This document shows, piece after piece, positions 1,863 through 59,274 of a stretch of DNA of 64,000 nt (position 1 is its first letter; each line of letters begins with the position of its first letter). Source of the DNA: Ignavibacteriota bacterium (lineage in GTDB: Bacteria > Bacteroidota > Ignavibacteria > Palsa-1295); the NCBI GenBank assembly GCA_963794025.1, contig CAWCCK010000003.1:2414-66413 (forward strand). The letters run 5' to 3'. Below the pieces are notes generated by a model, which was given only the letters and a program-made list of their open reading frames with translations, was not told where the DNA came from and ran no database searches. The translations under genes were made by a program, and so were the position numbers.

Positions 1863-2047
1863 TCTTGAGGAAAAGATTAATTATGAAGTATGAATTATGA
1901 AAGGGAAGAAATCAATTAGCTTTCAACGGAAGTCAATTATGAATACTTGTTGAAACAAATGTGCGAAATTGACTCATAAACGAGGTTTGTACGAAGTATT
2001 AAACGCGCACAACAACAAAGACAACTATTTCTGGAGGAACAGTAATT

Positions 2048-3082
2048 ATGCGAGGAACAACCTTACTGACACAAAACCGATTCGAAGCCACGCACCGCGA
2101 AACCTTCGACGATGGCTGGGAAACGCTATCCGAAGAATTGCCGGTGCTGCAAACGCAATTTATTCCGGATCACGCGAAGAGCATTCTGTTCAAGAATGAC
2201 AGTCCGGATATTCCGACGGCGTACTCGCTAAATGCGTATCGCGGGTGCGAGCATGGCTGCGCATATTGCCGCGCCAGACCGTACCATGAATATCTCGGAT
2301 TCAATGCCGGCATTGATTTCGAAACGAAAATTATGGTCAAGCACGACGCGCCGGAATTGCTGCGTAAGGAATTTAGCAATCCGCACTGGATGCCGCAATC
2401 TATTATGATGAGCGGCAACACGGATTGCTATCAGCCCGCCGAGCGTGAACATAAGCTGACGCGGAAACTGCTGGAAGTATTTCTGGAATTTCGGAATCCG
2501 GTGAGCATTCTTACGAAGAACGCGCTCATCCTGCGCGATCTCGATCTGCTGAAAGAACTTGCGGAACTGAATCTTGTGCGAACGATGCTTTCGATCACTT
2601 CGATAGACCCAGAACTTCGCCGGAAACTCGAACCGCGTACTTCTACTGTAGATAGGAAATTCAAAGCGATGGAAGAGCTTGCCAAAGCGAATGTGCCCGT
2701 CGGCGTGATGGTCGGGCCGATCATTCCGGGACTGAACGATAACGAAGTTCCACAAATTCTGAAACGGGCGAGCGAGAACGGCGCGAAATGGGTCGCGCAT
2801 ACGATCTTGCGCTTGCCCTACGCCGTTGCGCCGATCTTTACGGATTGGATCGAGAAAAATTATCCGGAAAAAGCAGGCCGTGTAATGACGCGCATCCGCA
2901 TGATACGAGGCGGGAAATTAAACGATCCCAACTTTGGAACGCGCATGTCCGGCATCGGCGGCTACGCAGATTACATGCACAACGTCATCAAAGTGCTATC
3001 GCTAAAATATGGCATGACGGGTCACCGGGAACCGCTATCTGTGGATCAATTCCGAAGAGCCGGCGCGTGGGGGTTGTTTTGA
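2048..3082 (+). CDS. splB: Radical SAM protein, spore-photoproduct-lyase-like DNA repair enzyme (SplB / COG1533 family).
   Basis: CxxxCxxC cluster in YRGCEHGCAYCRAR plus downstream SPL-family conservation. Confidence 0.8.
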   Translation: MRGTTLLTQNRFEATHRETFDDGWETLSEELPVLQTQFIPDHAKSILFKNDSPDIPTAYSLNAYRGCEHGCAYCRARPYHEYLGFNAGIDFETKIMVKHDAPELLRKEFSNPHWMPQSIMMSGNTDCYQPAEREHKLTRKLLEVFLEFRNPVSILTKNALILRDLDLLKELAELNLVRTMLSITSIDPELRRKLEPRTSTVDRKFKAMEELAKANVPVGVMVGPIIPGLNDNEVPQILKRASENGAKWVAHTILRLPYAVAPIFTDWIEKNYPEKAGRVMTRIRMIRGGKLNDPNFGTRMSGIGGYADYMHNVIKVLSLKYGMTGHREPLSVDQFRRAGAWGLF

Positions 3083-3145
3083 AGGGTAAAGCAATCAGCA
3101 CTTTCTATCGGGTATCTTTGTATTCTTTGAAGAAAGGAAGAAATT

Positions 3146-3346
3146 ATGCAACCATATCACGCCGAAGCTATTATTAATCAGGAAGGCAAAATCATTCTGT
3201 CGCTGCCGTTTCCAGCGGGCAAGAAGGTGGACGTTGTAGTCCTGCCTTCCGACGAGGACATTGAAGATAAGGATTGGAAAAAAATGGCTCTCAAACATTT
3301 CCTCGATGGCTATGCGGACGAGGACTCGGTTTATGATGCGCTTTGA
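3146..3346 (+). CDS. Small (66 aa) acidic protein, antitoxin-like (beta-hairpin 'GKIILSLP…KVDVVVLP' then an acidic tail). Hypothetical.
   Basis: Complete ORF with AGGAAG Shine-Dalgarno-like sequence 8 nt upstream. Lower GC than the flanks. Family assignment is weak. Confidence 0.4.
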   Translation: MQPYHAEAIINQEGKIILSLPFPAGKKVDVVVLPSDEDIEDKDWKKMALKHFLDGYADEDSVYDAL

Positions 3347-3416
3347 GTAATGGTTCCTTCCCTGCTTTTGTTGCTTTTTTAGCTGTTAGGTTTTAATATT
3401 AATGGAGGATAAAATC

Positions 3417-3782
3417 ATGGTTAATAAAATAATTAGTTATTTCGATCTTCAATCCGAACACAGAGAAATCGTCGCTAAGGGGAATGCTGCGAGTGCCAAA
3501 AATACTTATGTTCTTCCGCAATATCTCATCGTTTCTGCTGGTGTAGTTATTGAACCATTCTTGAGGATTTATGTACAAAGTGGCACATGGGGGATTGACT
3601 CTTCCATCGTGTTTGGAAGAATTATATTCGGGCTTATCATGGGAATCATTCTTTTGCCACCAGCTTATAAAGCGACATTTGATACGGAGAAACCAATCTT
3701 CGTGCAACTCGCCGCATTGCTCCCCATAGGGATAGGATGGCAATCGCTTTTCAGTGCTTTGACAAAAATCACATTAGGATAA
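3417..3782 (+). CDS. Small multi-pass membrane protein (hypothetical). The ORF track begins at 3402. GGAGGA at 3404-3409 favours the ATG at 3417.
   Basis: Three hydrophobic segments (YLIVSAGVVIEPFL, IVFGRIIFGLIMGIILLP, LAALLPIGIGW). AT-rich. Confidence 0.5.
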   Translation: MVNKIISYFDLQSEHREIVAKGNAASAKNTYVLPQYLIVSAGVVIEPFLRIYVQSGTWGIDSSIVFGRIIFGLIMGIILLPPAYKATFDTEKPIFVQLAALLPIGIGWQSLFSALTKITLG

Positions 3783-3790
3783 ATTTTCTT

Positions 3791-4972
3791 ATGCTCATAG
3801 ATTATCTTAGATATGTTGCTTTTAAAGGACACCTTCGTGGCTTCTTCGAAAAGGGATTATATAATTATGTTAAGCAGGACGAGACTACGGGGCAGCACCT
3901 GCGTTTTTCTCCAGAATTCATAGACGAGAGACTTGGTTTGCGTGGACAAGAGGTAATTCATGACCTTTATTGTATGCCTCTCTCGAAGGATTTAATTTTC
4001 GAACGAATGAAATCCCGAATCGGAATATCGGGTGGCCCTGACGGAATTAGACGTTCTCCGTTTCGTGTTGGTGGTGAGCCGTCTTGCTTCACTTACAACG
4101 ACGGTGAAAATAGTTCTCCAAAACTTGAGATTATAGTAGATATAGATCCAAAGCATTGGAATGAGGGTTTTTCTGAAACAACCAATTACGAAGGCACACC
4201 GATTATATTCAGGCAAGCTGGAGTTGCAAGAGCTAACATTAATAGTGGCGATAAGCTATTCGACTCGAAGCTGGGAACGAAAAAATATGGAACTCTTTGT
4301 GGTATATTTTCTACATCGAAAAGCGAATATTGGGGTCTGACATGTGAGCATGTTGTGCGGAACTGGTCCCATGTTTCAATTGAGCACATTTATAAAGTCG
4401 GAAAATTTCGAAGTAAAAAAAACCGGAGTATTTTGGGTGATGTGTGCTACAAAGAAGTCTGTGGTGAGTTTAGAGATTTTGAACAGGTCAGGACTCAACT
4501 TGATGCGGTACTGATTGCGTTGGAGCCGTCTTATATAATAGAGTCTGAGATGCATAAGGACGAACATCGTGCTACGGTGAAACCAATCTCGGAAATTCTT
4601 CAAGAAGAACCTATCCTTTTTCGTGGCGCAGGGAGGATTCGAGAAACTCTCGCCCGCGTGTCTGCCGTAACCGTGAGAAAATCAATTGACCTTTACAATG
4701 ATGGTAAACTGAAAAGTGTTGGAGACGTTCTTATGCTTGGTCATGAACGTCCAATGTACATCGCACAACCTATTAGCAGAGGTGGAGATTCTGGTGCTGC
4801 TGTTCGGCAAAGTTTTTCATCCGTTGGAGGATACCGTGAGCATAATCAATGGTTCGGGATGGTATTGGGGTCTGATGGCGAAGGGGCATACGCAACACAT
4901 GCTGAAAATCTCTTTGCATGGGCTCAGCAGGTGCTGGTAAACCCTGATATTGAATTTCTATATGAGGTTTGA
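3791..4972 (+). CDS. Trypsin-fold (S1 / chymotrypsin-like) serine protease domain protein with an unrecognised ~240-aa N-terminal domain.
   Basis: Catalytic triad context: His in GLTCEHVV, Asp in LDAVLIALE, Ser in SRGGDSGAAV (classic GDSG). ATG at 3791 directly follows the upstream gene's stop. AT-rich. Confidence 0.7.
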   Translation: MLIDYLRYVAFKGHLRGFFEKGLYNYVKQDETTGQHLRFSPEFIDERLGLRGQEVIHDLYCMPLSKDLIFERMKSRIGISGGPDGIRRSPFRVGGEPSCFTYNDGENSSPKLEIIVDIDPKHWNEGFSETTNYEGTPIIFRQAGVARANINSGDKLFDSKLGTKKYGTLCGIFSTSKSEYWGLTCEHVVRNWSHVSIEHIYKVGKFRSKKNRSILGDVCYKEVCGEFRDFEQVRTQLDAVLIALEPSYIIESEMHKDEHRATVKPISEILQEEPILFRGAGRIRETLARVSAVTVRKSIDLYNDGKLKSVGDVLMLGHERPMYIAQPISRGGDSGAAVRQSFSSVGGYREHNQWFGMVLGSDGEGAYATHAENLFAWAQQVLVNPDIEFLYEV

Positions 4973-5101
4973 GCCTCCCCCGCGCACATTCCGTTTGCAA
5001 GTGAAAATATATAACGACGTGAGCATGGAGGTACATAAACCTGTTCTCTCATGTTTTTCATCCCCGTCGTCCGAAAATGTATTATATTTGTCTATGCTAT
5101 T

Positions 5102-5113
5102 ATAGGCACCTAT
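5102..5113. promoter_or_regulatory. Palindrome ATAGGCACCTAT overlapping the dinB start codon. Candidate operator; TATATTTG (-7-like element) lies about 25 bp upstream.
   Basis: 12-bp inverted repeat ATAGG-CA-CCTAT, also present upstream of ssb and the zeta-like gene. Confidence 0.45.
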
Positions 5114-6398
5114 GAATCTCATCCTCTGTCATCTCGATATGGACGCGTTCTTCGCTTCGGTCGAAGAAAAGCACGATCCGAGCCTGCGCGGGAAACCCGT
5201 GCTGGTGTGCGCCGGCCCGGTGGGTCGCGGCGCGGTTGCCTCGTGCAATTATGTGGCGCGGCGGCTGGGCATAAAAACGGGCATGAGCACACAGGAAGCG
5301 ATGCGTCAATTTCCGCAAGCGGTTCCCGTGCGCGCGAATTACGAGCGGTATCAGGAGGCGTCCGAGCAAATCCTGCGGATCATCTACCGTTTCACCCCGG
5401 ATGTCGAGCCGCTTAGTTTGGATGAATCGTTTTTCGAATTCACGCACGTTCCGCGCTGGCGGGACGATCCGCTTGGGGCTGCTCAGGCCATTCAGCGCGC
5501 GATAGACGAGGAACTTCACCTCAGCTCATCCATCGGAATTGCAAGCGGGAAAGTATTAGCCAAAATTGGGAGCGATTTTAAGAAGCCGCATGGCATTACC
5601 CAAGTGCCGTTTGGTTACGAGCAGGATTGGATCGCCACGCTGCCCGTCGAAGCCGTGCCCGGCGTCGGACACGCAACGGAACGAAAACTTAAAGAGCTTG
5701 GCATTGAAGTATGCGGCGATATTTGCCAAATGGCTCCCGGCGTGCTGCGTAAGCTGTTCGGGAATGTACACGGGACATTTCTCTGGAACATGGCGCATGG
5801 CCGCGATGCGCGTCCGCTCATGAAACGCGGCGCGGCGAAATCCATTTCGCATCAAAGCACGCTGCAAAAAACGACGACGGATAAAGACTATGTGGAATCG
5901 CTCTTGCTCTACATCGCCGAGCGCTGTCTCTGGCGTTTACGGACGAGCAGCATGAGCACACGCAGCCTTTCCATCTATATGCGGTTCGCCGATCAACGAT
6001 TCGCGCAACGGGCCACGCATCTAAAAATTCCCACGCAATCGGAGCAGGTTATCTTCCCGCTCGTCTCAGAAATGACGCGCGAGATCTGGCTTGCAAATCC
6101 ACGCCCGCGTGTGACGTTCATCGGTGTGCATCTCTCGGATTTCCAACCCACCACGCCGCAGGAGAAATTATTCTTCGACGATACAGAAAAGAAAGAACGC
6201 CTTTCGCGCACGATGGGGAATCTTCGTGAAAAATTTCACTCCCCCATTGTTACCAGCGCGCGAACGTTTGGATTGCATCATTCCTATCGCCTCTCGCAAG
6301 CCGGACTTTCGTTCAGCACGGCGAGCGTCGAGGGAAAAGAAGCGGAAGAAATGCTGAAACGAGAAGCAGAGAAATTTATGGCGATGGAAACGGCATAA
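5112..6398 (+). CDS. dinB: DNA polymerase IV (Y-family translesion polymerase).
   Basis: N-terminus ILCHLDMDAFFASVE and the ImpB/UmuC fold throughout. Confidence 0.9.
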   Translation: MNLILCHLDMDAFFASVEEKHDPSLRGKPVLVCAGPVGRGAVASCNYVARRLGIKTGMSTQEAMRQFPQAVPVRANYERYQEASEQILRIIYRFTPDVEPLSLDESFFEFTHVPRWRDDPLGAAQAIQRAIDEELHLSSSIGIASGKVLAKIGSDFKKPHGITQVPFGYEQDWIATLPVEAVPGVGHATERKLKELGIEVCGDICQMAPGVLRKLFGNVHGTFLWNMAHGRDARPLMKRGAAKSISHQSTLQKTTTDKDYVESLLLYIAERCLWRLRTSSMSTRSLSIYMRFADQRFAQRATHLKIPTQSEQVIFPLVSEMTREIWLANPRPRVTFIGVHLSDFQPTTPQEKLFFDDTEKKERLSRTMGNLREKFHSPIVTSARTFGLHHSYRLSQAGLSFSTASVEGKEAEEMLKREAEKFMAMETA

Positions 6399-6604
6399 TA
6401 AAAAAATAATATGGCTTCGGAAACCAATTTACTCATTTTGGGTTTCCATAGTTCTTCACAGAGTGGTTCATCGTGGCGATCCAGTAAAAATGATGGGTAA
6501 CGATACAATGAATTCATAATCTGCTGGATCGAAACCTTAGCGATAAATGAGCGTATCGTGCCTTTGGAAACTAACGAATCGATTCTGGTTTCCTCAGATT
6601 CCTC

Positions 6605-7326: not shown

Positions 7327-8388
7327 GTGTCAGACACTTTTTTCATCAATCGCATGGCAGAAACAAATACGGAAGAGCAAGTCAAAATAGAAAAAAAAGG
7401 CATCGTGCGCAGAGCGCTCCCCTTTCTTTTCCTGGCCATTCTTATCGCAGCCGGAATTTACGGCTGGCACATTATCCAATATAATAAAGTTCACGAGAAC
7501 ACGGACGATGCGCAGATCGATGTCGATGTGACGCCGATCATTCCGCGCGTGGCCGGTTTCGTGGCCGCTATTCGCGTCAACGATAACGACCGCGTGGATT
7601 CGAACGAGCTGCTCGTCACGCTCGATACGAATGATTTATCGCTAAAGATAAAATCAGCGGATGCGGCGCTTGCGAATGCTCAGGCCTCCGCGCTCTCTGC
7701 TGAGGCATCGGCTTCGGTTGCGCGCGCAAATGTTGTGACCGCAACCGTCAGCCGCCAAAAAGCTGCGGACGATCTCGCTCGCGCAAACGGCCTCTTCGCC
7801 GGCAGCGCGATCACCAAGCAGCAATTCGATAATTATAAATCCGCAGATGAAGTTGCCGAAGCGCAGTTAAAAAGCGCAAACGACATGGCCTCGGCATCCG
7901 AAGCGCAAGTGGCTGTTGCGAAATCGCAGATCGGGCAAAAGCAGGTCGATCTCGAAAATGCAAAATTGCAGATCACGTATGCCACTATCATCTCGCCGGT
8001 CGCGGGAATCGTAGCAAAACGCAATGTGGAAATTGGCGAATACATTCAAGCCGGTCAGCCGCTGATGGCTGTAACGCAGGGCGATATATGGATTACTGCG
8101 AATTTCAAAGAAACGCAATTATTTGACATGCACCCCGGTCAGCGCGCCGAGTTTGTAGTCGATGGCTACCCGGATTCGACATTCCACGGCACGGTGCAAT
8201 CCATCTCACCGGCTACGGGCGCGAAATTTTCGCTGTTGCCGCCGGATAATTCCACCGGCAATTTCGTAAAAGTTACCCAGCGCGTGCCGGTGAAAATTCT
8301 TGTCGATCGCGAGGATTATTCCAAATCCCCGCTCCGACCCGGCATGAGCGTGGATGTTACTATCGCTACAGGTGGCGATAAAAGGTAA
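7327..8388 (+). CDS. HlyD-family membrane fusion protein (EmrA-like).
   Basis: N-terminal TM, coiled-coil region, C-terminal beta-barrel motifs (…NFVKVTQRVPVKI…). Confidence 0.85.
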   Translation: MSDTFFINRMAETNTEEQVKIEKKGIVRRALPFLFLAILIAAGIYGWHIIQYNKVHENTDDAQIDVDVTPIIPRVAGFVAAIRVNDNDRVDSNELLVTLDTNDLSLKIKSADAALANAQASALSAEASASVARANVVTATVSRQKAADDLARANGLFAGSAITKQQFDNYKSADEVAEAQLKSANDMASASEAQVAVAKSQIGQKQVDLENAKLQITYATIISPVAGIVAKRNVEIGEYIQAGQPLMAVTQGDIWITANFKETQLFDMHPGQRAEFVVDGYPDSTFHGTVQSISPATGAKFSLLPPDNSTGNFVKVTQRVPVKILVDREDYSKSPLRPGMSVDVTIATGGDKR

Positions 8389-28582: not shown

Positions 28583-28830
28583 AGTTGGCTATCATCTTGG
28601 GGTCATTGCCCGGAACCCACAATAGGTGCTCGCCGTGTTAGGCGAGAATGATAATACCCGACGCGCCCCGCTTCGGCTCCGAATACCCGAAGCTCCAAAT
28701 CCTCACCATCGAGGGATTGATGTCGGGAACCGAACGCCCCCGGTTCCCGGATTTAATCCGCTGGGACGCTCCACATTCAAACGCGCGGCTGTGGAGGATG
28801 TGAGCGGGGGGCAGGGGAGGATTTTTTAGA

Positions 28831-29307
28831 ATGGAAAAGTTAGCACCTGTTGCTGAAACTAACACCAAAGCAACTAAGAAACCTAAAAAAAATAAAGCGA
28901 TTCGAGAAATAAGCGCTCTGCTCCTTTGGAGCTACGTGTTTGTGAATACTTTAATTTTCGATGTCGATGCGTGGCTCTTAACAATTATTCCATCGCAATT
29001 CCATTGGCTAATCCAATATAAGTTCCTTCTGGTCCTCTTTACCATCATACTCCTTTTCCTTTTTCAGGGCTGGAAATCACTTTTCCTGAACATATCCTTT
29101 GTGGCTACGTACCCTTACACTTTTCCTTTTCGATATCTTTGGAAGGCCATTAAGCGAAACAATGCTAACCAAAAAAAGAATGCGGCAACAGCAGATACAC
29201 CTGAACAAAGACAAAAGGCGCTATCGGCAATAACCATTGGCGTCAGCCTGATTCCTATTGTTCGCCGATTTTTTATGAAGTTCCGACAACGCATTGCAGC
29301 CTTATGA
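28831..29307 (+). CDS. Hypothetical membrane protein (low-GC island 2).
   Basis: Lys-rich N-terminus then 3-4 hydrophobic segments. AT-rich codon usage. Confidence 0.4.
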   Translation: MEKLAPVAETNTKATKKPKKNKAIREISALLLWSYVFVNTLIFDVDAWLLTIIPSQFHWLIQYKFLLVLFTIILLFLFQGWKSLFLNISFVATYPYTFPFRYLWKAIKRNNANQKKNAATADTPEQRQKALSAITIGVSLIPIVRRFFMKFRQRIAAL

Positions 29308-29646
29308 TTGCTTGCTTTGTCAACATTAATCACATTTATTAATCCCTCTCCTGAGATTAATATTTTATGTGTTATTTTTATTTCGATTAGCTTACTAATT
29401 TTGGCTGGAATAAAAATCTTCGTTGTATTTTTTTCAAAAGGAATTTTTGAAGGAGAAGCAGTTTCCGATCCCGATATTTTAACAAAAAGAAAAGTTTTTG
29501 AGGAATTCGAAAAGGAACACGTAGAATTACAAAAATTATCGGCAGAAAGCACCGAAATGCAGCCCAAAGGGTGCGTAATATTCGAAAGTTACTTCGATTA
29601 CATCGGGCATTCGAATGGTGCCGTGAAAAGCAAGAGCAATTTTTAA
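29308..29646 (+). CDS. Hypothetical small membrane protein (TTG start directly after the upstream stop).
   Basis: Two TM segments plus a charged C-terminal tail. Translationally coupled to the upstream ORF. Confidence 0.35.
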   Translation: MLALSTLITFINPSPEINILCVIFISISLLILAGIKIFVVFFSKGIFEGEAVSDPDILTKRKVFEEFEKEHVELQKLSAESTEMQPKGCVIFESYFDYIGHSNGAVKSKSNF

Positions 29647-29844
29647 AAAAGGGGAATTATTGTCTTCTTAACGTTAATTTCCTATGCATTAATATTCGCG
29701 GTAATCATTTTTGCATTTGGCATCATCTATCAATCTTTATTTCAGGCCAATCAATCTCTTTTTATTACTAACGGGATTCATCCTAACTTTTTTAAGTTTC
29801 AACTCTTTAGTTTTGCACAATTTGCTGGAAAAGAAGTAAATGAC

Positions 29845-30153
29845 TTGGGATCAAAAAGCAATCTCATTTTAACTTTTAATTTAGTTGAACACTTGCTTTT
29901 AATCTTCCTACTCCTTACTGTTGTCTTTGCCGTTATAATGAGTTCGCTGAAACAGCGCTATGAGGATGATGTAAAATCCATTATTTCATTCCTTCAAATG
30001 TCGATCCTTGGGCTTGAGAAGAAATTCGCCGAGCTTTATAACATAAAAATCGCTGAAGCAGCAAAAGAACTCAATTTGAAAGGGGAACCAATTGAAGCCT
30101 ATTTTGTGGATATCCCCGAAGCAAAACCATCCGGAACTATGCCTCCTGTATAG
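29845..30153 (+). CDS. Hypothetical small membrane / coiled-coil protein. The frame is open upstream to 29647, so the true start is uncertain.
   Basis: TM segment LLLIFLLLTVVFAVIM, then a predicted coiled-coil. Confidence 0.3.
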   Translation: MGSKSNLILTFNLVEHLLLIFLLLTVVFAVIMSSLKQRYEDDVKSIISFLQMSILGLEKKFAELYNIKIAEAAKELNLKGEPIEAYFVDIPEAKPSGTMPPV

Positions 30154-30276
30154 TCCTATGGTGCTTTTGGTTCCTCGTTCTGATCGCAATTAAGTTAACT
30201 CGTACGCTTTGCTTTTTTCTTTTTTTCAATATTTGTGGTAAAGATTCGTCTCCGATCATGCAGCAAGCCCCATTCC

Positions 30277-30903
30277 TCACCAGTGTACGACCGCGTACCG
30301 CTTGGTCGAATTTCGTAGGTGCTCCGTAATAGCTTTCGCGCGAGTTCCCAAAATCGCTGAAGCCAATCGTTCTGATGAGATCGTGCCACTTATATCGCCA
30401 TCATCCATCATCCATTCTCTGAACGATTCGTCAAATAAGAGGGTGAAGAGATCAAGAGAATATCTCATGCTAACGCCCAGCTTTTGCGCCTGCTGCAGCA
30501 TGTCTCGTTCATCATCCGTTATGCTATTAAACGCTAATGAATGATCCTGGGCTTCTTCAAAAAGGCTTAATAGCCCGTGGCCCTTTCCACGGGCCAGCAT
30601 ATAAGCATCCTCAACAGGAACATTTGCGGAGAATATAATAGCAGCCTTTAAGGTGCATTCGATAGCCATTACAATGTCAACGAAAACTTTACTTCGAAAA
30701 CGCTGGCGGAACATGGCGTCATCGGGCCATACAAGGCCCACGCGATGAAGAAGTTCATATGCATCGTCTTTAAACCGTTCACCGATGTCGAGCCGCAGCT
30801 CGTCTTCGAGATCAAATCGCGTAGTACCGCGTAGCGCGATTAAAATTTCATCCAAGGCTTCTGCCGCTTCACTGCTATGTGATTTCGTAATTTCTGACAT
30901 CAT
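30277..30903 (-). CDS. Hypothetical soluble protein (208 aa), no recognisable domain.
   Basis: Complete ORF with plausible acidic/helical composition. Follows the small membrane protein genes. Confidence 0.45.
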   Translation of the reverse strand: MMSEITKSHSSEAAEALDEILIALRGTTRFDLEDELRLDIGERFKDDAYELLHRVGLVWPDDAMFRQRFRSKVFVDIVMAIECTLKAAIIFSANVPVEDAYMLARGKGHGLLSLFEEAQDHSLAFNSITDDERDMLQQAQKLGVSMRYSLDLFTLLFDESFREWMMDDGDISGTISSERLASAILGTRAKAITEHLRNSTKRYAVVHW

Positions 30904-30978
30904 CGAATGGAAATAATATTAACGGCCCCTAAAACATTAGAATACGATGCTTGTTCCAACCCTCGCCCGGTACTTCGT

Positions 30979-31352
30979 GGCTCCGCCACTTGGGGCTGCT
31001 TCCCCTCGCGCGGATTGTGCCGTCCCCCCAGTCAAGCTGAGGGCAGTCGTGCCACTTGAGCAGCGGCGCGGCGGTCCGCCGCGGCGGGTGCCCTCTGGGC
31101 CGCATCCTCTCTCTCCAGCGCCTGCCCTCGGCCAGATCGGGAGAAGTCTGAACTATGATCCTTCGACAAGCTCAGGACAAGCTTATGTGATTCGTGTGAT
31201 TGGCTCGATGATTGGCGTAGCATGGAAATCATGTCTCAATCCAAATAATCACACGAATCATAGTTCAGACAATGGGCTGCGGGTACATCCTTCGGCAAGC
31301 TCAGGACGGCTCCGCCACTTGGGAATGCTTCCCGACGCGCAGATTGTTCGTC
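30979..31352. repeat. Repeat-rich GC-rich non-coding block. 46-bp direct repeats GGCTCCGCCACTTGGG..TGCTTCCC..CGCGC.GATTGT.CGTCC at 30979-31024 and 31308-31352. They enclose a family B hairpin element (31145-31273; termini GTCTGAACTATGAT / ATCATAGTTCAGAC) and the motif CCCCCAGTCAAGCTGAGGGCAG (also at 32378-32400).
   Basis: Direct read. The track ORF 30947..31369 here is probably spurious. Confidence 0.6.
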
Positions 31353-31372
31353 CGCATCGCGCGCGTTAATAA

Positions 31373-32147
31373 TTGAATACCATGCAACGAACCGGAATCA
31401 CCCATCTCATTTTTTCGTGCTTCGTTGCGCTGGTATTGTTAATTCCCACTCGTGGCTTCGGCTGGGGTAAGGATGGTCATGCGGCGATTGTGCGGCTTGC
31501 ATTTCAGCTCATGCCAGCCGCGCAGCGGGAGCGGCTTTATGCCATCCTCGACACCACCGATCCGTATTACATCGGCAATTGGGCGGATTGGTATGCCCGC
31601 AAAGAATATCCTGAGTCGAAGCCGTGGCATTATGTTGACATCCCGGCAGATGCCACGAAATACCGTTCCCTCCCGCGATTGCGGCGATGATGGCTGCATT
31701 CTTTCGGAACTTCCTCTGCTGGAACAGGAACTAAAGAAAAAGCGCCTATCCTTCACCGATCGCCGTGAGGATATGCTGTATTATTTCCATTTTCTCGGTG
31801 ATCTTACTCAACCGTTCCATACGTTAGGTCCCACCGGCGCTACCGACTTGCATGTGAAATGGCATGGGGAAAGACAAACGCTGCATCGCGTGTGGGATGA
31901 AAGTATCATTCTTGAGCATGAGATAGACACGGTCGCTCTTCTGAAACTGGCGCGCTCGATGCAATCGGAACCGCTCGAAACCGATTATGCGAAGATCGCG
32001 ATGGAAGGCCACAGGATCGCAGTCCAAAATCTGGTTGATGAGGGTGTTCGCCTCCCAAATAATTACACGGATGAGAAATGGCCCATCGTCGAACATGCCC
32101 TCATTGAGGCCGCGTTGCTGATCGTGGCGAAGACGAAGGATATGTGA
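31373..32147 (+). CDS. S1/P1-family nuclease (secreted), with an apparent frameshift at about 31660-31690 (frame 2 to frame 3).
   Basis: Signal peptide plus GWGKDGH…WHYVDIP in ORF 31373..31690. Continues as DCGDDGC…HFLGDLTQPFH…LHRVWD in ORF 31452..32147. Confidence 0.7.
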
Positions 32148-50628: not shown

Positions 50629-51558
50629 GTGTATAGTGGAAAGTGGATAACGGATAGGAGAGGTCACTTTGCGTTTGGCATTGTGGTTGCGTTTCTGCTT
50701 TTTATTTCGTCTGTGGCGCATAGTCAGCTATCGCACCTTGACGATTCTATTTTTGCCGCAAAAATAAAACAAGCAAAGGCAGAAAAAATAGACACGCTCC
50801 CCATCGGCGAACGCATTGCTGCGATGGGCAAGCTTTTTCTGGGAACTGTGTATGTTGCTCACACGCTTGACGAGGATGCGTCGAAAGAACGCTTAGTCGT
50901 CGATCTACGCGGCTTCGATTGTGTAACCTTTTATGAGAACATGCTGGCGTTTGCGTGGATCATCCGTGAATTTGAACATCCTACCATATCGAATTTCGAA
51001 CAAGCACTCATGCTCCTTCGCTATCGGAATGGAAAGATCGATGGTTTCCATTCTCGTTTAAATTACACGATCGATTATTTTTATAGTAACGAGAAAAAGG
51101 ATGCACTTACTGTCAGAACTCACCAAGTTGGCGGGCAATATGCAAGGTATGATGACCGCGAAATCAATTTCATGACGACTCACCGTTCGCTTTACAAACA
51201 ACTCGCAACAAGCGATTCAGAATATAACGTGATGCTTCAAATCGAGAAAGATATTCACGCGCGAAAAGATTTTTATTATATTCCCAAAGCAGACATTCCT
51301 AAAATTGAATCAAAGATTGAGACCGGTGATATTCTTGGCATTACTACGAATATCCCCGGCTTGGATTGTTCACACACAGGAATTGCAATTCGAATGCAGG
51401 ATGGTCGGATACATTTCATGCATGCTTCGAGTTTAATGGGGAAAGTGATTATTAGCGATGAACCACTATCCGATTATTTGACGCACAGCAATCATCAAAC
51501 TGGAATCATCGTTACGCGACCTCTCGACTATAATCTACATGTTCATTTTAAACTATAG
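50629..51558 (+). CDS. DUF1460-family protein (secreted; papain-like / amidase-like fold candidate).
   Basis: Signal peptide, then …LFLGTVYVAHTLDED…LVVDLRGFDCVTF… conserved block. Confidence 0.5.
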   Translation: MYSGKWITDRRGHFAFGIVVAFLLFISSVAHSQLSHLDDSIFAAKIKQAKAEKIDTLPIGERIAAMGKLFLGTVYVAHTLDEDASKERLVVDLRGFDCVTFYENMLAFAWIIREFEHPTISNFEQALMLLRYRNGKIDGFHSRLNYTIDYFYSNEKKDALTVRTHQVGGQYARYDDREINFMTTHRSLYKQLATSDSEYNVMLQIEKDIHARKDFYYIPKADIPKIESKIETGDILGITTNIPGLDCSHTGIAIRMQDGRIHFMHASSLMGKVIISDEPLSDYLTHSNHQTGIIVTRPLDYNLHVHFKL

Positions 51559-54732: not shown

Positions 54733-57700
54733 TTATCGCAAGATCACCAGCGCGCCTTCGGCATGATAATCGAGGCTCGTGAGGCGATAGACGTAGCGCC
54801 CTTCCGGCAGACCAGACACATCCAACACAAGTGTATGCGTGCCGGTACTTAGAGTTCCCACATCACTGTGCTTCACGATCTGACCGATGGCATTGTAAAA
54901 ATCGAGCGTGACGGGCGCATTCCATCCTATTTCAAATGCGAGCGTCGCGTTATCGCCTGCCGGATTGGGAACGATAGCATTCGTCGTATACGGTCCGGCG
55001 AAGACCACGCCTTGCGCCGGCCCGCCGCAATCTTCGACGATAAATTCCCCATCGCTCGCGGACTCATCCGCTAACGGATCGGAGGAAGCCTCGATGACGT
55101 GAAGGTACGAAGTATCGTGAGGCCCCAGCAGCGCCTGCGTGTACAGCCGCATGACCGTATCATTGAGCGTAAAATTACTCCGCGCAATGCTTGCTTCGAC
55201 CGTGCTATCGTTGAGATGGATAAACTTTGCAGTATCTGTGATTGTGCCGCCATCCGCGCCGGACATCATCACCATTTGGGGATCGAAACGAACATCGAGT
55301 ATCACGCTGTCGTCGTTTATTTGTGCAAGACGCACGCCGGTTATAAGAATGGGGATGGAATCATTCTGTCCCGGTTCCTCCACACGAGTGGGAACGCTAT
55401 ATCCGAAATCAGGACCGTTTATAGACGAATACGTTCCCGAACCTGATACGGCAACGGTTAGTATGCTGTCGTGGTAGGAAGTAAGGAAGCTAAGCGTAGC
55501 CTGGATTTGCCGCGTTCGAACGGGGGTAAACGTCACGGTATCGAAGCGCGTCGAATCCGGCAGAATGGCTTCGCCGGGCAAGATCGAGCTTGCGACGAAT
55601 GCAGGGTCGGAACTATAAATGGAGTCGATATACAGTGGGTACGTGCCTACATTTTTGATGCGAACCGGCCCGACGTGGAACGATGTGCCGATAAGAATGG
55701 CTGGGAGCGGAATCGAATCCGGGCTGATAGACGGATGCGCTTCTACGCCCCGCGCGGAGAGTGGAACCATCTCGGAATCCGTTCCCGAATGAATAACGAG
55801 GTAGTCCGTATCGAATTGCTCCAAATGGGCGTGGTACGTTACGTGAAGTGTCAGCGTATCCTGCACATTTTTAATGGTGTAGGGCAGCGTTGAACTTGCG
55901 GTGTCATAGAACGAGTCGCGTGGCAAAGGGGTGGTGTAGAATACGCTCACGCTATCGATCGTTGGGAAATCATTCGTTGCAAAAAGAGAGAGCGGAAGTG
56001 CGGAATCATTCCCAATATGCACATTGCCGAAATCAAGGCCGACCGCGCTTAACTGTAACCCTTGTTCCGTTCCGAAACCGCTAAGAAGAACGGTATCCGT
56101 GTGACCATCCCACGAGAGGAAAAGCATCCCTTTTATAAGTCCCGTCTGCAACCCAGGATTAAAGGTGACCGCGATAGAATCGCTCATAAGCGGCGCAAGC
56201 AGCGAGGGTTGTTGTACCGTAAAAACGGGTATGCTGCATACCGCAGTGAGCAACGCAGCCACGTTCCCTGCGTTAGAATCATACACCATGAGCGTCCTGG
56301 TGGAATTCGTGAGCACATAACCGAAATCGCGGAACGCAGGATGAACAAGGACATCCGGCGCAAGCCCGACGCCACGCAGCGAAATAGTTCTCGGCGCAAT
56401 ACTATCGCCGGATATTTGCAGCGACGACGAAAACGTTCCGAACGACGTGGGCTGAAATTGCATGCAGAGGTAGATGGTATCGCCGCTCGCAAGTATCGTA
56501 TCTTCGGGCATTTGGGTAACTTTGAATGACCCTCCCATAAGCGAGGAACTGTCTAATTGCAGGCCAATGGGCTGGCAGCTTGGGTTCGTTATCGCAATAC
56601 AATAGGTTACCGAATCGCCGACGAGAATGCTATCGAAATCATGCAGGGTATCGCTCAGTGCGATTTTAGGCTCCGGTCCGCCCATCCCGTGCAGTGGGAG
56701 CGAAAACGAAGTTCCACAGCTATCGACCACAACCGTGAGTGTTCCCAAATACTCTTGCATGCTGTCCGGAGTGAACGCAATTTGAAATTGGCCACTGCCA
56801 CCGATCGTAGATGGGCGCTTGAGCAATGTGAAACCGGAACCCGTGACGGTTGCACTTATTACATCGATCGAATCAATCCCTTCATCGTTCAACGTGAACA
56901 TTTTATCGGACGTAGTTCCTGGGCAGACCGTATCAAATTCACCGATGGAACCCGTCCATCCTGCCTTTGCAATTTCGCGGGAACCCCTGAGATGGAACGA
57001 CGCTGCCGCACAGCCATCGAACGAAACAAAACTAAAGGTTCCGGTATCGAGTGCGCCGAGCGTGGGCGCATACGTTACCCAGATGGCCTGTGACCCCCCC
57101 GGCGGAACGATCACCGGGGAGGGAAATAGCGCAATAGAAAATCGAAGCGAACCCGTGTATGTGTTCGTTCCGAACGTAACTGTATCCGAAGTCGTGTTCC
57201 TAAGTGTATCCTGTTCTGAAATGGAATCAGTTTCGCATCCACGGCCAAACATCAGTTGAGGCGTACTGAAAGAAATTCCCTGAAATCCAAATTGCCCTTT
57301 AAACATAGCCGTTCCCGTACCGCAGGGCGACATCTGTAAATATGCCGTATCGACAAAAGCACCATTGGTTGCGGGATCAAGCACCAACTGCACGGGGACA
57401 CTACCGTGTGCTGGGATCGTAAGTGGAAAGAACGGGGTGTTTTCAAAAATAGCATTCTGGGAAAACGCGATGGTATCGAGATCGATGGGAATGTTATTCG
57501 GGTTGGAGACGACGATCGTCGTATCCTTTGCTTGACATAAGATTCCCATCTCCAGCGTCGGCGTAGTTACCGGTGCGGGCGGCGTAAGCGTGATGGAAAG
57601 CGTCGTTGCGGTATCGACAGAACAGAAAAATGTTTTGAGTTTGAGAAGCGGCGTCGCAAGGCCGCAAATGGTATCGTGCAAACGCACGCGAACCTGAAGT

Positions 57701-59274
57701 GTATCGCCGGGCGATTTAAGAACCCCGATCCGTCCGTCAAGTAGTTCCAGCACCGTGGTATCCGAGGAGCCGATCGCGGAAATTTCATTCGGCACGTCGC
57801 CGGTATTTGTCACAAGGACGGTCGTATCGCGTGTAACGCCAGCCCGTGTGCTCGGAGCGGAGCCGAAATCAATAGTTGCGGGCATAGATAGTTCCGCGCG
57901 TTCGCGGACAGCCGTAACATTCACAACCGCTATGCGGGAGCATTTATCCAATGCAAAGCCCATCGTTGTGCTGAGAGGGCCGCGCGTTCCGCTTAGCAAC
58001 TGCACCTGGATAATCGTATCCTGATGGGGCGCTAACGTAATTGGGAACCCGCTTAACACTGTTACGATCGAATCGGAAGGAAGAATAACATTTACAATCG
58101 TAACAGAATCGGTGACGCTGGTATTGGTGAGCGTAAGGGTTTTCACGGCGGGTAGCAGGCACTGCGTAAGCCCGCCAAAATTCAACGTTGCAGGATTGCT
58201 GGTGAGGCCCACGCTGTCATACGCCGCCTGGATGCCGATCACAATTCTGCCGCCGCAATTCGTTGAAGTTGCGATGTACAGCGAGTCGGTAAAACTCCCG
58301 CCCTCATCCGGCTCGAAATGCAAACGGAGCGAATCGACGATATTCGAATCGGCTGGAAGTGTGAACGGCGAGTTGGGAACGATAGAAAAGGCCACACCCA
58401 GGCGGAACCCGACCGTATCGACGTACAACGGCACGGAACCGAGATTACGCACATGGATCACAGTATCGAAGAAGGAAGCGCAACGCAGCGTGGGAATGAT
58501 AATGTTCTTTTCGACCGATGCAAGCTCGTATCCCGGTGAACCATTCTGCATAGGCGAACTCGAAGGAACGATCTCGACATTTGCCCCGCGCAGGAACCCA
58601 TCCCGGCCATGCCCGGAAAAATCATGCGCGCGTGATGAGCCGGCTGGGTCGTCAAACGTATAGTAAAGTACGAGACCAGAATCATTCCCGTTCATGGTTT
58701 GATACATGGACTGACGTATTGCCGCAAGCGGGCGCGGGATATTCCACAGGCGTAGCTCATCGATCGAACCGGTGAACCCGGCGCCGATCCAACTCAGGCC
58801 GATCCGCACACTATCCACATTCGAATCGATCGCTGTATATGGAGCATTCACGCTTGACACTTCGATGGAATCGACATAGAACCGGGCGCTATCGTTTGGC
58901 GTGAACACGAACGCGAAATGATGCCAATTTGCGGATGAATCCACCGTTGGAGTATAATCCGAAATGGGATTTGCTTCGCGCATTATTCCATAGAGGGTGG
59001 AATCATTCTTGTAAAAGATCCCATAATCGCCTTTATCTACGAGCGCCGCGCCCGTGGTTGCCGCACTAACTTTAGCCCAGCATTCGATCGTGAATCCTTT
59101 GCTCAGGTTGAGCGCGGCAGCGCCGGGCGTTGCCACATAGGAACCCGGACTCGTGATCGTAAGCATATTCCGCGAGCAATCCTGCGCGTATAGCGTAGGC
59201 GCGCACCACACGCTCGCGACGATCAGGACGATCGCGCGAATGAAATGGCGATATGGTATGCTTCGGTGCGTCAC
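54733..59274 (-). CDS. Very large (1513 aa) secreted surface protein with N-terminal LamG/concanavalin-like lectin domain, multiple Ig-like beta-sandwich repeats and T9SS C-terminal sorting domain.
   Basis: Signal peptide. LamG-like block (…GFTIECWAKV…WHHFAFVF…GSIDELRLWN…). C-terminus …DFYNAIGQIVKHS…GRYVYRLTSLDYHAEGALVILR. Confidence 0.7.
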   Translation of the reverse strand: MTHRSIPYRHFIRAIVLIVASVWCAPTLYAQDCSRNMLTITSPGSYVATPGAAALNLSKGFTIECWAKVSAATTGAALVDKGDYGIFYKNDSTLYGIMREANPISDYTPTVDSSANWHHFAFVFTPNDSARFYVDSIEVSSVNAPYTAIDSNVDSVRIGLSWIGAGFTGSIDELRLWNIPRPLAAIRQSMYQTMNGNDSGLVLYYTFDDPAGSSRAHDFSGHGRDGFLRGANVEIVPSSSPMQNGSPGYELASVEKNIIIPTLRCASFFDTVIHVRNLGSVPLYVDTVGFRLGVAFSIVPNSPFTLPADSNIVDSLRLHFEPDEGGSFTDSLYIATSTNCGGRIVIGIQAAYDSVGLTSNPATLNFGGLTQCLLPAVKTLTLTNTSVTDSVTIVNVILPSDSIVTVLSGFPITLAPHQDTIIQVQLLSGTRGPLSTTMGFALDKCSRIAVVNVTAVRERAELSMPATIDFGSAPSTRAGVTRDTTVLVTNTGDVPNEISAIGSSDTTVLELLDGRIGVLKSPGDTLQVRVRLHDTICGLATPLLKLKTFFCSVDTATTLSITLTPPAPVTTPTLEMGILCQAKDTTIVVSNPNNIPIDLDTIAFSQNAIFENTPFFPLTIPAHGSVPVQLVLDPATNGAFVDTAYLQMSPCGTGTAMFKGQFGFQGISFSTPQLMFGRGCETDSISEQDTLRNTTSDTVTFGTNTYTGSLRFSIALFPSPVIVPPGGSQAIWVTYAPTLGALDTGTFSFVSFDGCAAASFHLRGSREIAKAGWTGSIGEFDTVCPGTTSDKMFTLNDEGIDSIDVISATVTGSGFTLLKRPSTIGGSGQFQIAFTPDSMQEYLGTLTVVVDSCGTSFSLPLHGMGGPEPKIALSDTLHDFDSILVGDSVTYCIAITNPSCQPIGLQLDSSSLMGGSFKVTQMPEDTILASGDTIYLCMQFQPTSFGTFSSSLQISGDSIAPRTISLRGVGLAPDVLVHPAFRDFGYVLTNSTRTLMVYDSNAGNVAALLTAVCSIPVFTVQQPSLLAPLMSDSIAVTFNPGLQTGLIKGMLFLSWDGHTDTVLLSGFGTEQGLQLSAVGLDFGNVHIGNDSALPLSLFATNDFPTIDSVSVFYTTPLPRDSFYDTASSTLPYTIKNVQDTLTLHVTYHAHLEQFDTDYLVIHSGTDSEMVPLSARGVEAHPSISPDSIPLPAILIGTSFHVGPVRIKNVGTYPLYIDSIYSSDPAFVASSILPGEAILPDSTRFDTVTFTPVRTRQIQATLSFLTSYHDSILTVAVSGSGTYSSINGPDFGYSVPTRVEEPGQNDSIPILITGVRLAQINDDSVILDVRFDPQMVMMSGADGGTITDTAKFIHLNDSTVEASIARSNFTLNDTVMRLYTQALLGPHDTSYLHVIEASSDPLADESASDGEFIVEDCGGPAQGVVFAGPYTTNAIVPNPAGDNATLAFEIGWNAPVTLDFYNAIGQIVKHSDVGTLSTGTHTLVLDVSGLPEGRYVYRLTSLDYHAEGALVILR

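Follow-up and report, generated by a model that had tools for sequence, protein, structure and literature searches.

Within a 64,000-nt stretch of a contig from an Ignavibacteriota bacterium (the window in what follows), a pair of genes encoding a small membrane protein (ORF2; ORF, open reading frame) and a serine protease (ORF3) lies between a radical-SAM gene and dinB. Our analysis firmly supports that these two genes are a horizontally acquired cassette, which near-exactly displaced the toxin gene mazF from a resident mazEF-like pair, and that the protease domain of ORF3 is, among known relatives, closest to the plant protease NAL1. These points (anatomy, acquisition, and relationship to NAL1) are very probably correct. 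A role in genetic conflict (phage defence by abortive infection, or addiction), exercised through a switch mechanism, is a more tentative proposal whose chances we put somewhat short of even. The same caution applies to the statement as a whole, i.e., that an acquired cassette with a NAL1-related protease forms a membrane-coupled proteolytic switch with a conflict role.

The locus was compared with a sister contig from a JGI metagenome (L019), which has ~90% nucleotide identity to the window and in which breakpoints were located by blastn. The following features are discussed below:

2048–3082: radical-SAM gene of the PA0069 family, 5′ flank of the ORF1–ORF3 region
3146–3346, forward strand: ORF1, 66 amino acids (aa)
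3350–3353, forward strand: left breakpoint; the last homologous bases are the start codon ATG of the lost mazF plus a G
3354–5055, forward strand: foreign segment of 1702 bp with 42.1% GC, replacing 342 bp of L019 (6028–6369) that hold mazF
3404–3409, forward strand: Shine-Dalgarno sequence GGAGGA, 7 nt 5′ of the ORF2 start
3417–3782, forward strand: ORF2, 121 aa
3791–4972, forward strand: ORF3, 393 aa
5056–5111, forward strand: right breakpoint; homology to L019 is back, native spacer 5′ of dinB
5112–6398: dinB, 3′ flank of the ORF1–ORF3 region

An earlier reading of the bare sequence (the original prediction) had proposed a low-GC island of three co-oriented genes between the radical-SAM gene and dinB, and the coordinates of all three genes are confirmed. 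Low GC content was confirmed as well: the region 3090–5105 has 42.2% GC compared to 50.7% for the whole window (standard deviation 2.8% for equal-length windows), and only ~1% of equal-length windows are as GC-poor. However, the assumed background of ~57% was too high, with the flanking genes at 52–55%. Moreover, the foreign composition ascribed to the island applies to two of its genes only. The GC content at third codon positions (GC3) is 0.377 for ORF2 (z −3.0) and 0.355 for ORF3 (z −3.35), which is below the values of all 40 other long ORFs used for comparison (mean 0.557, standard deviation 0.06, minimum 0.408), whereas ORF1 is ordinary (0.522, z −0.57). Shine-Dalgarno-like motifs such as the one preceding ORF2 are indeed rare here, being found 5′ of ~6 of the 42 long ORFs of the window, and the proposed host of the FCB (Fibrobacteres–Chlorobi–Bacteroidetes) group is supported by a type IX secretion system (T9SS) sorting domain in the protein encoded at 54733–59166. 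A scan for promoters and terminators gave a result no better than shuffled sequence. Starts further upstream, at 3737 for ORF3 and at 3402 for ORF2, were discarded, as the first residues of the homologs correspond to 3791 and 3417, respectively; in the case of ORF2, all homologs begin at the equivalent Met.

In L019, the gene order is zeta-like kinase, radical-SAM, a 66-aa gene, PemK/MazF (PF02452), dinB, a 63-aa gene plus ParE, TetR, RND, and MFS. The 66-aa gene is 92% identical to ORF1 and the 112-aa PemK/MazF gene starts 3 nt later, an antitoxin-gene-then-toxin-gene arrangement as in MazEF/PemIK which is also present in a second sister contig, L020. The toxin gene is absent from the window. 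Positions 2044–3353 of the window align to L019 4718–6027 with 91% identity and positions 5056–6394 to L019 6370–7709 with 89%, and junction alignments show that homology is lost one base past the mazF start codon and regained 7 nt past the mazF stop codon. Thus, the window segment takes the place of the mazF-bearing 342 bp. No terminal direct or inverted repeats and no transposon-like ends were found at the borders of the segment. ORF2 and ORF3 are each the only member of their sequence cluster, in contrast to the 8–15 close relatives of dinB, the radical-SAM gene and ORF1, and these singleton clusters point to a recent acquisition in this lineage. At the left junction, the surviving mazF start codon now opens a 10-codon remnant ORF (3350–3382, MVPSLLLLLF).

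ORF1 is a resident MazE-like antitoxin gene that has been orphaned by the loss of mazF and lies outside the cassette. Exact-sequence look-up placed it in a 90%-identity cluster whose members include ‘MazF’ proteins of 112 aa and a fusion of ORF1 to MazF with 180 aa; its match to the RelN antitoxin family is weak and under the cutoff (E 0.011). Based on its native composition and residency, the foreign segment comprises two genes, not three. The cassette sits in the exact position of the toxin gene of a MazEF/PemIK system, the antitoxin partner of which is ORF1 in the sister contigs, but ORF2 and ORF3 have nothing in common with MazF. A defence island of three genes, with the 66-aa antitoxin-like protein acting together with ORF2 and ORF3, is highly improbable: the genes do lie near each other in one orientation, and ORF1 is intact despite the loss of its toxin partner, but its composition is native, it is paired with MazF in sister contigs, and tblastn detected an ORF1 homolog at none of more than 25 other cassette-bearing loci. 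The pairing with MazF and the absence from the other loci led us to reject a system that includes ORF1, and this part of the original prediction with it.

The sequence of ORF3 identifies it as a putative cytoplasmic clan-PA serine protease with an intact catalytic triad. No exchange of H187 (TCEHV), D238 (LDAVLIAL), or S334 (GDSGAA) is seen among 44 close and 100 distant relatives, and both the His-Asp-Ser order with a GDSG serine motif and the double beta-barrel fold of clan PA are found, in agreement with the trypsin-fold protease initially proposed. A signal-like hydrophobic stretch at the N-terminus was not seen on reading the sequence (no predictor was run). An AlphaFold model of the monomer is confident, with a predicted local distance difference test (pLDDT) score of 86 and a predicted template modeling (pTM) score of 0.89, except for a low-confidence linker around residues 150–160. 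This linker separates a conserved N-terminal domain (residues 1 to ~150) of unclassified fold, with D4, Y5, L6, R7, A10, G34, H36, D117, P120, and R141 as invariant positions in the core family, from a NAL1-like chymotrypsin fold (~150 to 393).

Structure and profile searches both lead to NAL1. Rice NAL1 ranked first when the ORF3 model was compared to the PDB by Foldseek (E 2.5e-10), and a profile of the 100 distant relatives retrieved only NAL1 chains significantly from 177,635 PDB sequences (E 2.6e-5 to 2e-4), with FAM111A as the next protease (E 1.2). The alignment covers the protease domain, with corresponding motifs GTLG, T-x-HV, D-A-x-I, and GDSG; hence, this domain is nearer to NAL1 than to other clan-PA proteases. 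The link emerged only upon widening the profile to the 100 relatives, as a narrower 44-sequence profile gave only a chance match in the PDB (E 0.06) and did not reach NAL1. ORF3 itself has no Pfam or NCBIfam match, including the curated Trypsin, Trypsin_2, and S64 families, and no significant match in PHROGs or PADLOC. Among its 100 relatives, there are sub-threshold matches to Trypsin_2 (23/100), Peptidase_S64/Ssy5 (12/100, best E 0.002), and Nal1_C (1/100), as well as a single stray match to the LmuA model of PADLOC (E 0.003).

NAL1 from rice is a hexameric cage protease in which the protease domain (triad H234/D291/S385) is preceded by an N-terminal domain and a non-canonical ATP-binding domain; its cage is self-compartmentalising, built from two stacked trimers, and needed for activity (PMC12012508). 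Compared to the NAL1 structures (PDB 7Y77, 8PN2, and 8PMG), ORF3 is likewise an intracellular chymotrypsin-fold protease of similar size with an extra ~150–180 residues before the catalytic domain, and the spacing of its triad (H187/D238/S334) is nearly equal. In contrast, sequence identity is only ~16%, NAL1 has no membrane-protein partner, and ORF3 was modeled as a monomer only, whereas NAL1 is a hexameric cage. A second likeness is to Ssy5 from yeast (peptidase family S64), which acts under the control of a membrane-embedded partner, the SPS sensor of the plasma membrane (PMC6761765). Ssy5 is also a clan-PA endoprotease with a large N-terminal non-catalytic region and a membrane partner, but ORF3 itself lacks an S64 match, the S64 matches of its relatives are below Pfam thresholds, and the Ssy5 partners Ssy1/Ptr3 are unrelated to the 121-aa ORF2. 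The clan of ORF3 and the family that it resembles are both known, but we found no description of its small membrane partner, the unclassified N-terminal domain, or the mobile-cassette behavior in the libraries and papers searched. Our literature search retrieved no paper on bacterial NAL1-like proteases or on the ORF2-ORF3 gene pair.

ORF2 and ORF3 travel together. We collected 63 relatives of ORF3 of ~390 aa with 30–57% identity, all annotated as ‘hypothetical’ and none with a Pfam domain, and at every recovered locus outside Bradyrhizobium an ORF2 homolog is encoded directly upstream. These paired loci come from Thalassospira, Paraburkholderia, a Burkholderiales metagenome-assembled genome (MAG), an alphaproteobacterial MAG, and metagenome contigs. 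Across 15 pairs from very different bacteria the intergenic gap is −1 to 18 nt (8 nt in the window), the pairwise identities of ORF2 and ORF3 correlate (r=0.76), and ORF2 is the more conserved partner, with a mean identity of 54% compared to 43% for ORF3. Even two distant proteases (profile E 1e-23 and 1e-43) are still accompanied by an ORF2 homolog (hhalign probabilities, 99.8% and 100%); one of these distant pairs has overlapping stop and start codons. Conversely, searches seeded with ORF2 found ORF3 immediately downstream in 10 distinct metagenome loci. The pairing of a membrane protein with a protease that was noticed in the window is therefore a real conserved one, and our data firmly support co-inheritance of the two genes in a pairing that is dominant, not obligatory.

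Several loci depart from this arrangement. In five loci from Bradyrhizobium and similar bacteria (L005, L009, L010, L011, and L015), solo ORF3 relatives lie downstream of a beta-eliminating lyase gene with an upstream spacer of ~330 bp; L005, the sole one of these loci with gene calls, has an aminotransferase gene on the other side. Bradyrhizobium sp. 139 holds two ORF3 copies (L011 and L016). On a TARA ocean contig (L035, 6001–7026), an ORF2 homolog is followed after ~130 nt by a 177-aa PDZ-domain protein and not by a NAL1-like protease, so that ORF2-type proteins may be able to partner other protease-related modules. On a short contig (L037, 1–1418), an ORF3-like protease fragment is located upstream, not downstream, of the ORF2 homolog, an order that hints at tandem or rearranged cassettes.

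ORF2 had been described as a protein with three transmembrane segments. Its hydropathy profile shows one strong hydrophobic segment (~residues 62–84), but the other two are only moderate (~31–53 and ~93–116). The hydrophobic segments contain conserved Glu, Arg, Gln, Trp, Pro, and Gly, and are preceded by a polar N-terminal tail of ~30 residues that bears a conserved YFDLQS motif. In an alignment of 31 sequences, F9, Q35, G42, P47, Y52, F71, P81, Y84, F88, P93, Q97, G105, G107, and W108 are invariant, and Y8, D10, L11, and S13 are kept in 90% or more of the sequences; Q35 is not kept in an ORF2 copy that accompanies a distantly related protease. ORF2 has no significant match in Pfam, NCBIfam, PHROGs, or PADLOC, and none of 33 ORF2 relatives carries a Pfam domain.

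A membrane-acting protein encoded next to a cytoplasmic protease (trypsin-like or caspase-like) is also the layout of bacterial gasdermin systems, which are found in defence islands and in which the gasdermin is cleaved and then oligomerises into pores (reviewed in PMC13434031). The logic of a protease that activates an effector would fit the conserved, presumably cytoplasmic tail of ORF2 (PMC13434031). Unlike gasdermins, ORF2 is a 121-aa integral membrane protein; it was compared only with sequence libraries and gave no match. There was also no match to the PADLOC models for gasdermins or their associated proteases, nor any library match that would mark ORF2 as a gasdermin-fold partner, and no NLR or CARD sensor gene accompanies the cassette. 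In line with the original prediction, which did not recognise a described system in this architecture, it is absent from PADLOC, Pfam, NCBIfam, and PHROGs; for PADLOC-DB v2, this holds for ORF1, ORF2, and ORF3 alike.

The cassette is extremely rare. A scan of 185,579 species genomes turned up only 10 loci of the core ORF3 family, spread over 9 genomes that all belong to the Alpha- or Betaproteobacteria, which together with the copy in the FCB-group window implies transfer across phyla. An exhaustive profile search uncovered a wider superfamily of 361 representative clusters (proteins at least 50% identical; E 0.001 or better), nearly all with 350–430 aa. This defines a previously unannotated bacterial protein superfamily, the first prokaryotic group found in this analysis that is specifically related to NAL1. 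Since NAL1 is regarded as plant-specific (PMC12915138) and is agronomically important in rice, the superfamily offers a lead on the origin of NAL1 and a simpler system for the biology of its cage and N-terminal domain.

The genomic settings of individual copies vary:

L021: GAPS4-type PD-(D/E)xK nuclease and a protein with an AbiJ N-terminal domain
L022: integrase, HNH, ParD, MmeI restriction-modification, and ParA
L023: RadC, PD-(D/E)xK, TrwB/TraG, and resolvase
L002: DUF932 and NOV_C
L006: WYL regulator and a PIN toxin-antitoxin pair
L003: thiolase and other ordinary metabolic genes
L024: sulfatases and other ordinary genes
L001: katG upstream

Overall, ~5–6 of 11 independent cassette loci adjoin defence, toxin-antitoxin, or mobile-element genes as a raw count, and the rest adjoin ordinary genes. 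The abortive-infection or defence pattern suggested at the outset is therefore circumstantial: some copies lie next to GAPS4/AbiJ, MmeI, integrase, or conjugation genes, but others lie among metabolic genes.

Our tentatively favored reading is that the ORF2-ORF3 pair might act as a membrane-coupled proteolytic switch in genetic conflict. We infer the conflict role from the rarity and mobility of the cassette, its frequent defence, toxin-antitoxin, or mobile-element neighbors, the tight coupling of the two genes, and the ORF2 tail as a possible docking or cleavage site. In such a switch, ORF2 would dock ORF3 at the inner membrane by its conserved cytoplasmic N-terminal tail with the YFDLQS motif, and the conserved N-terminal domain of ORF3 would either hold the protease latent or sense the trigger. 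A membrane or infection cue would then release ORF3 to cut. Its substrate might be the ORF2 tail, so that ORF2 would become a membrane-damaging effector as in gasdermin-plus-protease systems, or, following the logic of Ssy5, ORF3 might cut cytoplasmic targets of the host or of a phage. The most specific version, a minimal abortive-infection system in which infection triggers a membrane-held NAL1-like cage protease that its N-terminal domain had kept latent, the YFDLQS tail is cut, ORF2 turns into a lethal pore, and NAL1 descends from this bacterial superfamily of conflict proteases, appears unlikely.

Several observations weigh against a conflict role. The known relatives of ORF3 (NAL1 and Ssy5) are regulatory and not immune proteases, and the model of its N-terminal domain yields no functional clue. 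ORF2 lacks a detectable ORF3 in 4 of 17 loci (in one of them a PDZ-domain protein comes next), and in the Bradyrhizobium lineage ORF3 is found alone at a syntenic chromosomal site, with no remnant of ORF2 detected upstream of these solo copies. The copies in L003 and L024 are embedded among ordinary metabolic genes, no ORF3 copy was found on PLSDB plasmids, INPHARED phages, or IMG/VR contigs, and no model in Pfam, NCBIfam, PHROGs, or PADLOC backs a role in defence.

The main rival is a regulatory or quality-control module outside genetic conflict, which would move horizontally as an accessory trait and in which ORF2 would be a membrane sensor or anchor and ORF3 a signaling protease that cuts a cellular regulator or a membrane substrate. 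This rival draws on the regulatory functions of its nearest relatives, NAL1 (PMC12012508) and the membrane-sensor-controlled Ssy5 (PMC6761765), on the stable syntenic site of solo ORF3 in Bradyrhizobium between the beta-eliminating lyase and aminotransferase genes, on the metabolic surroundings in L003 and L024, and on the fact that ORF2 and ORF3 each occur solo. However, an extremely rare distribution that is patchy across phyla speaks against it, as do the foreign composition of the cassette in the window, the replacement of a toxin gene at a site whose occupant differs among close relatives, and the location of several copies in defence-island or conjugative-element settings. Moreover, the pair is not accompanied by any conserved gene that could encode a substrate. 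On balance, we regard a regulatory module as rather unlikely, although it deserves more weight than any other alternative considered here.

The takeover of the mazF slot would find an explanation if the cassette were itself an addiction pair resembling a toxin-antitoxin system, with ORF2 as a membrane-depolarising toxin that is continuously degraded by ORF3, or the reverse. The cassette occupies the toxin-gene position directly after an antitoxin gene in a toxin-antitoxin-rich region (zeta-like kinase upstream, ParE pair in the sister contig), the coupling of its two genes is tight (−1 to 18 nt apart), and the hydrophobic segments of ORF2 include conserved polar residues. Nevertheless, solo ORF2 (four loci) and solo ORF3 (one Bradyrhizobium lineage, no ORF2 remnant) show that neither is lethal alone, and therefore neither protein is an obligate neutraliser of the other. 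The existence of solo genes counts against our favored reading in general and weakens strict toxin-antitoxin logic in particular. In addition, there is no DNA-binding or autoregulatory domain, and a two-domain protease of 393 aa would be an unusually elaborate antitoxin. An addiction pair of this kind is thus improbable, about as much so as the specific abortive-infection scheme described above.

The 1.7-kb cassette is a compact two-gene candidate, consisting of a protease and a small membrane protein, for a new conflict or defence module. Independent of its function, the exchange of mazF for the cassette, with an orphan antitoxin left behind, is a clean natural example of toxin-antitoxin slots as sites of accessory-gene exchange.

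Further differences between the window and L019 are found in the same neighborhood, which is a variable stretch rich in toxin-antitoxin genes. L019 carries an extra 63-aa gene and a ParE toxin gene between dinB and TetR (7749–8187) that are missing from the window (~6390–6400), and this difference together with the mazF swap marks the neighborhood as a hot spot for the gain and loss of toxin-antitoxin-type cassettes. On the other side, the reverse strand of the window harbors a gene for a zeta-toxin-like P-loop kinase (1149–1823; Pfam Zeta_toxin, E 2.6e-13) within a region (968–1823) of lowish GC content (44%), whose alignment to L019 is partial with homology gaps between 1138 and 1557. A small ORF (968–1264), called as 65 aa in locus L008, overlaps the 3′ end of the kinase gene.

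Two other parts of the window stand out by composition. The region around 28600–31400 has the lowest GC content of the window (~40%) and probably represents a further foreign island, with five ORFs of 102–208 aa that all lack a Pfam match:

28831–29307: low-GC stretch ORF
29308–29646: low-GC stretch ORF
29845–30153: low-GC stretch ORF
30277–30903, reverse strand: low-GC stretch ORF
30947–31369: low-GC stretch ORF

Finally, a gene for an AmiA-like N-acetylmuramoyl-L-alanine amidase (50824–51558) has an unusually low GC3 of 0.408 and is located in a moderately low-GC stretch at ~49.9–52.4 kb.

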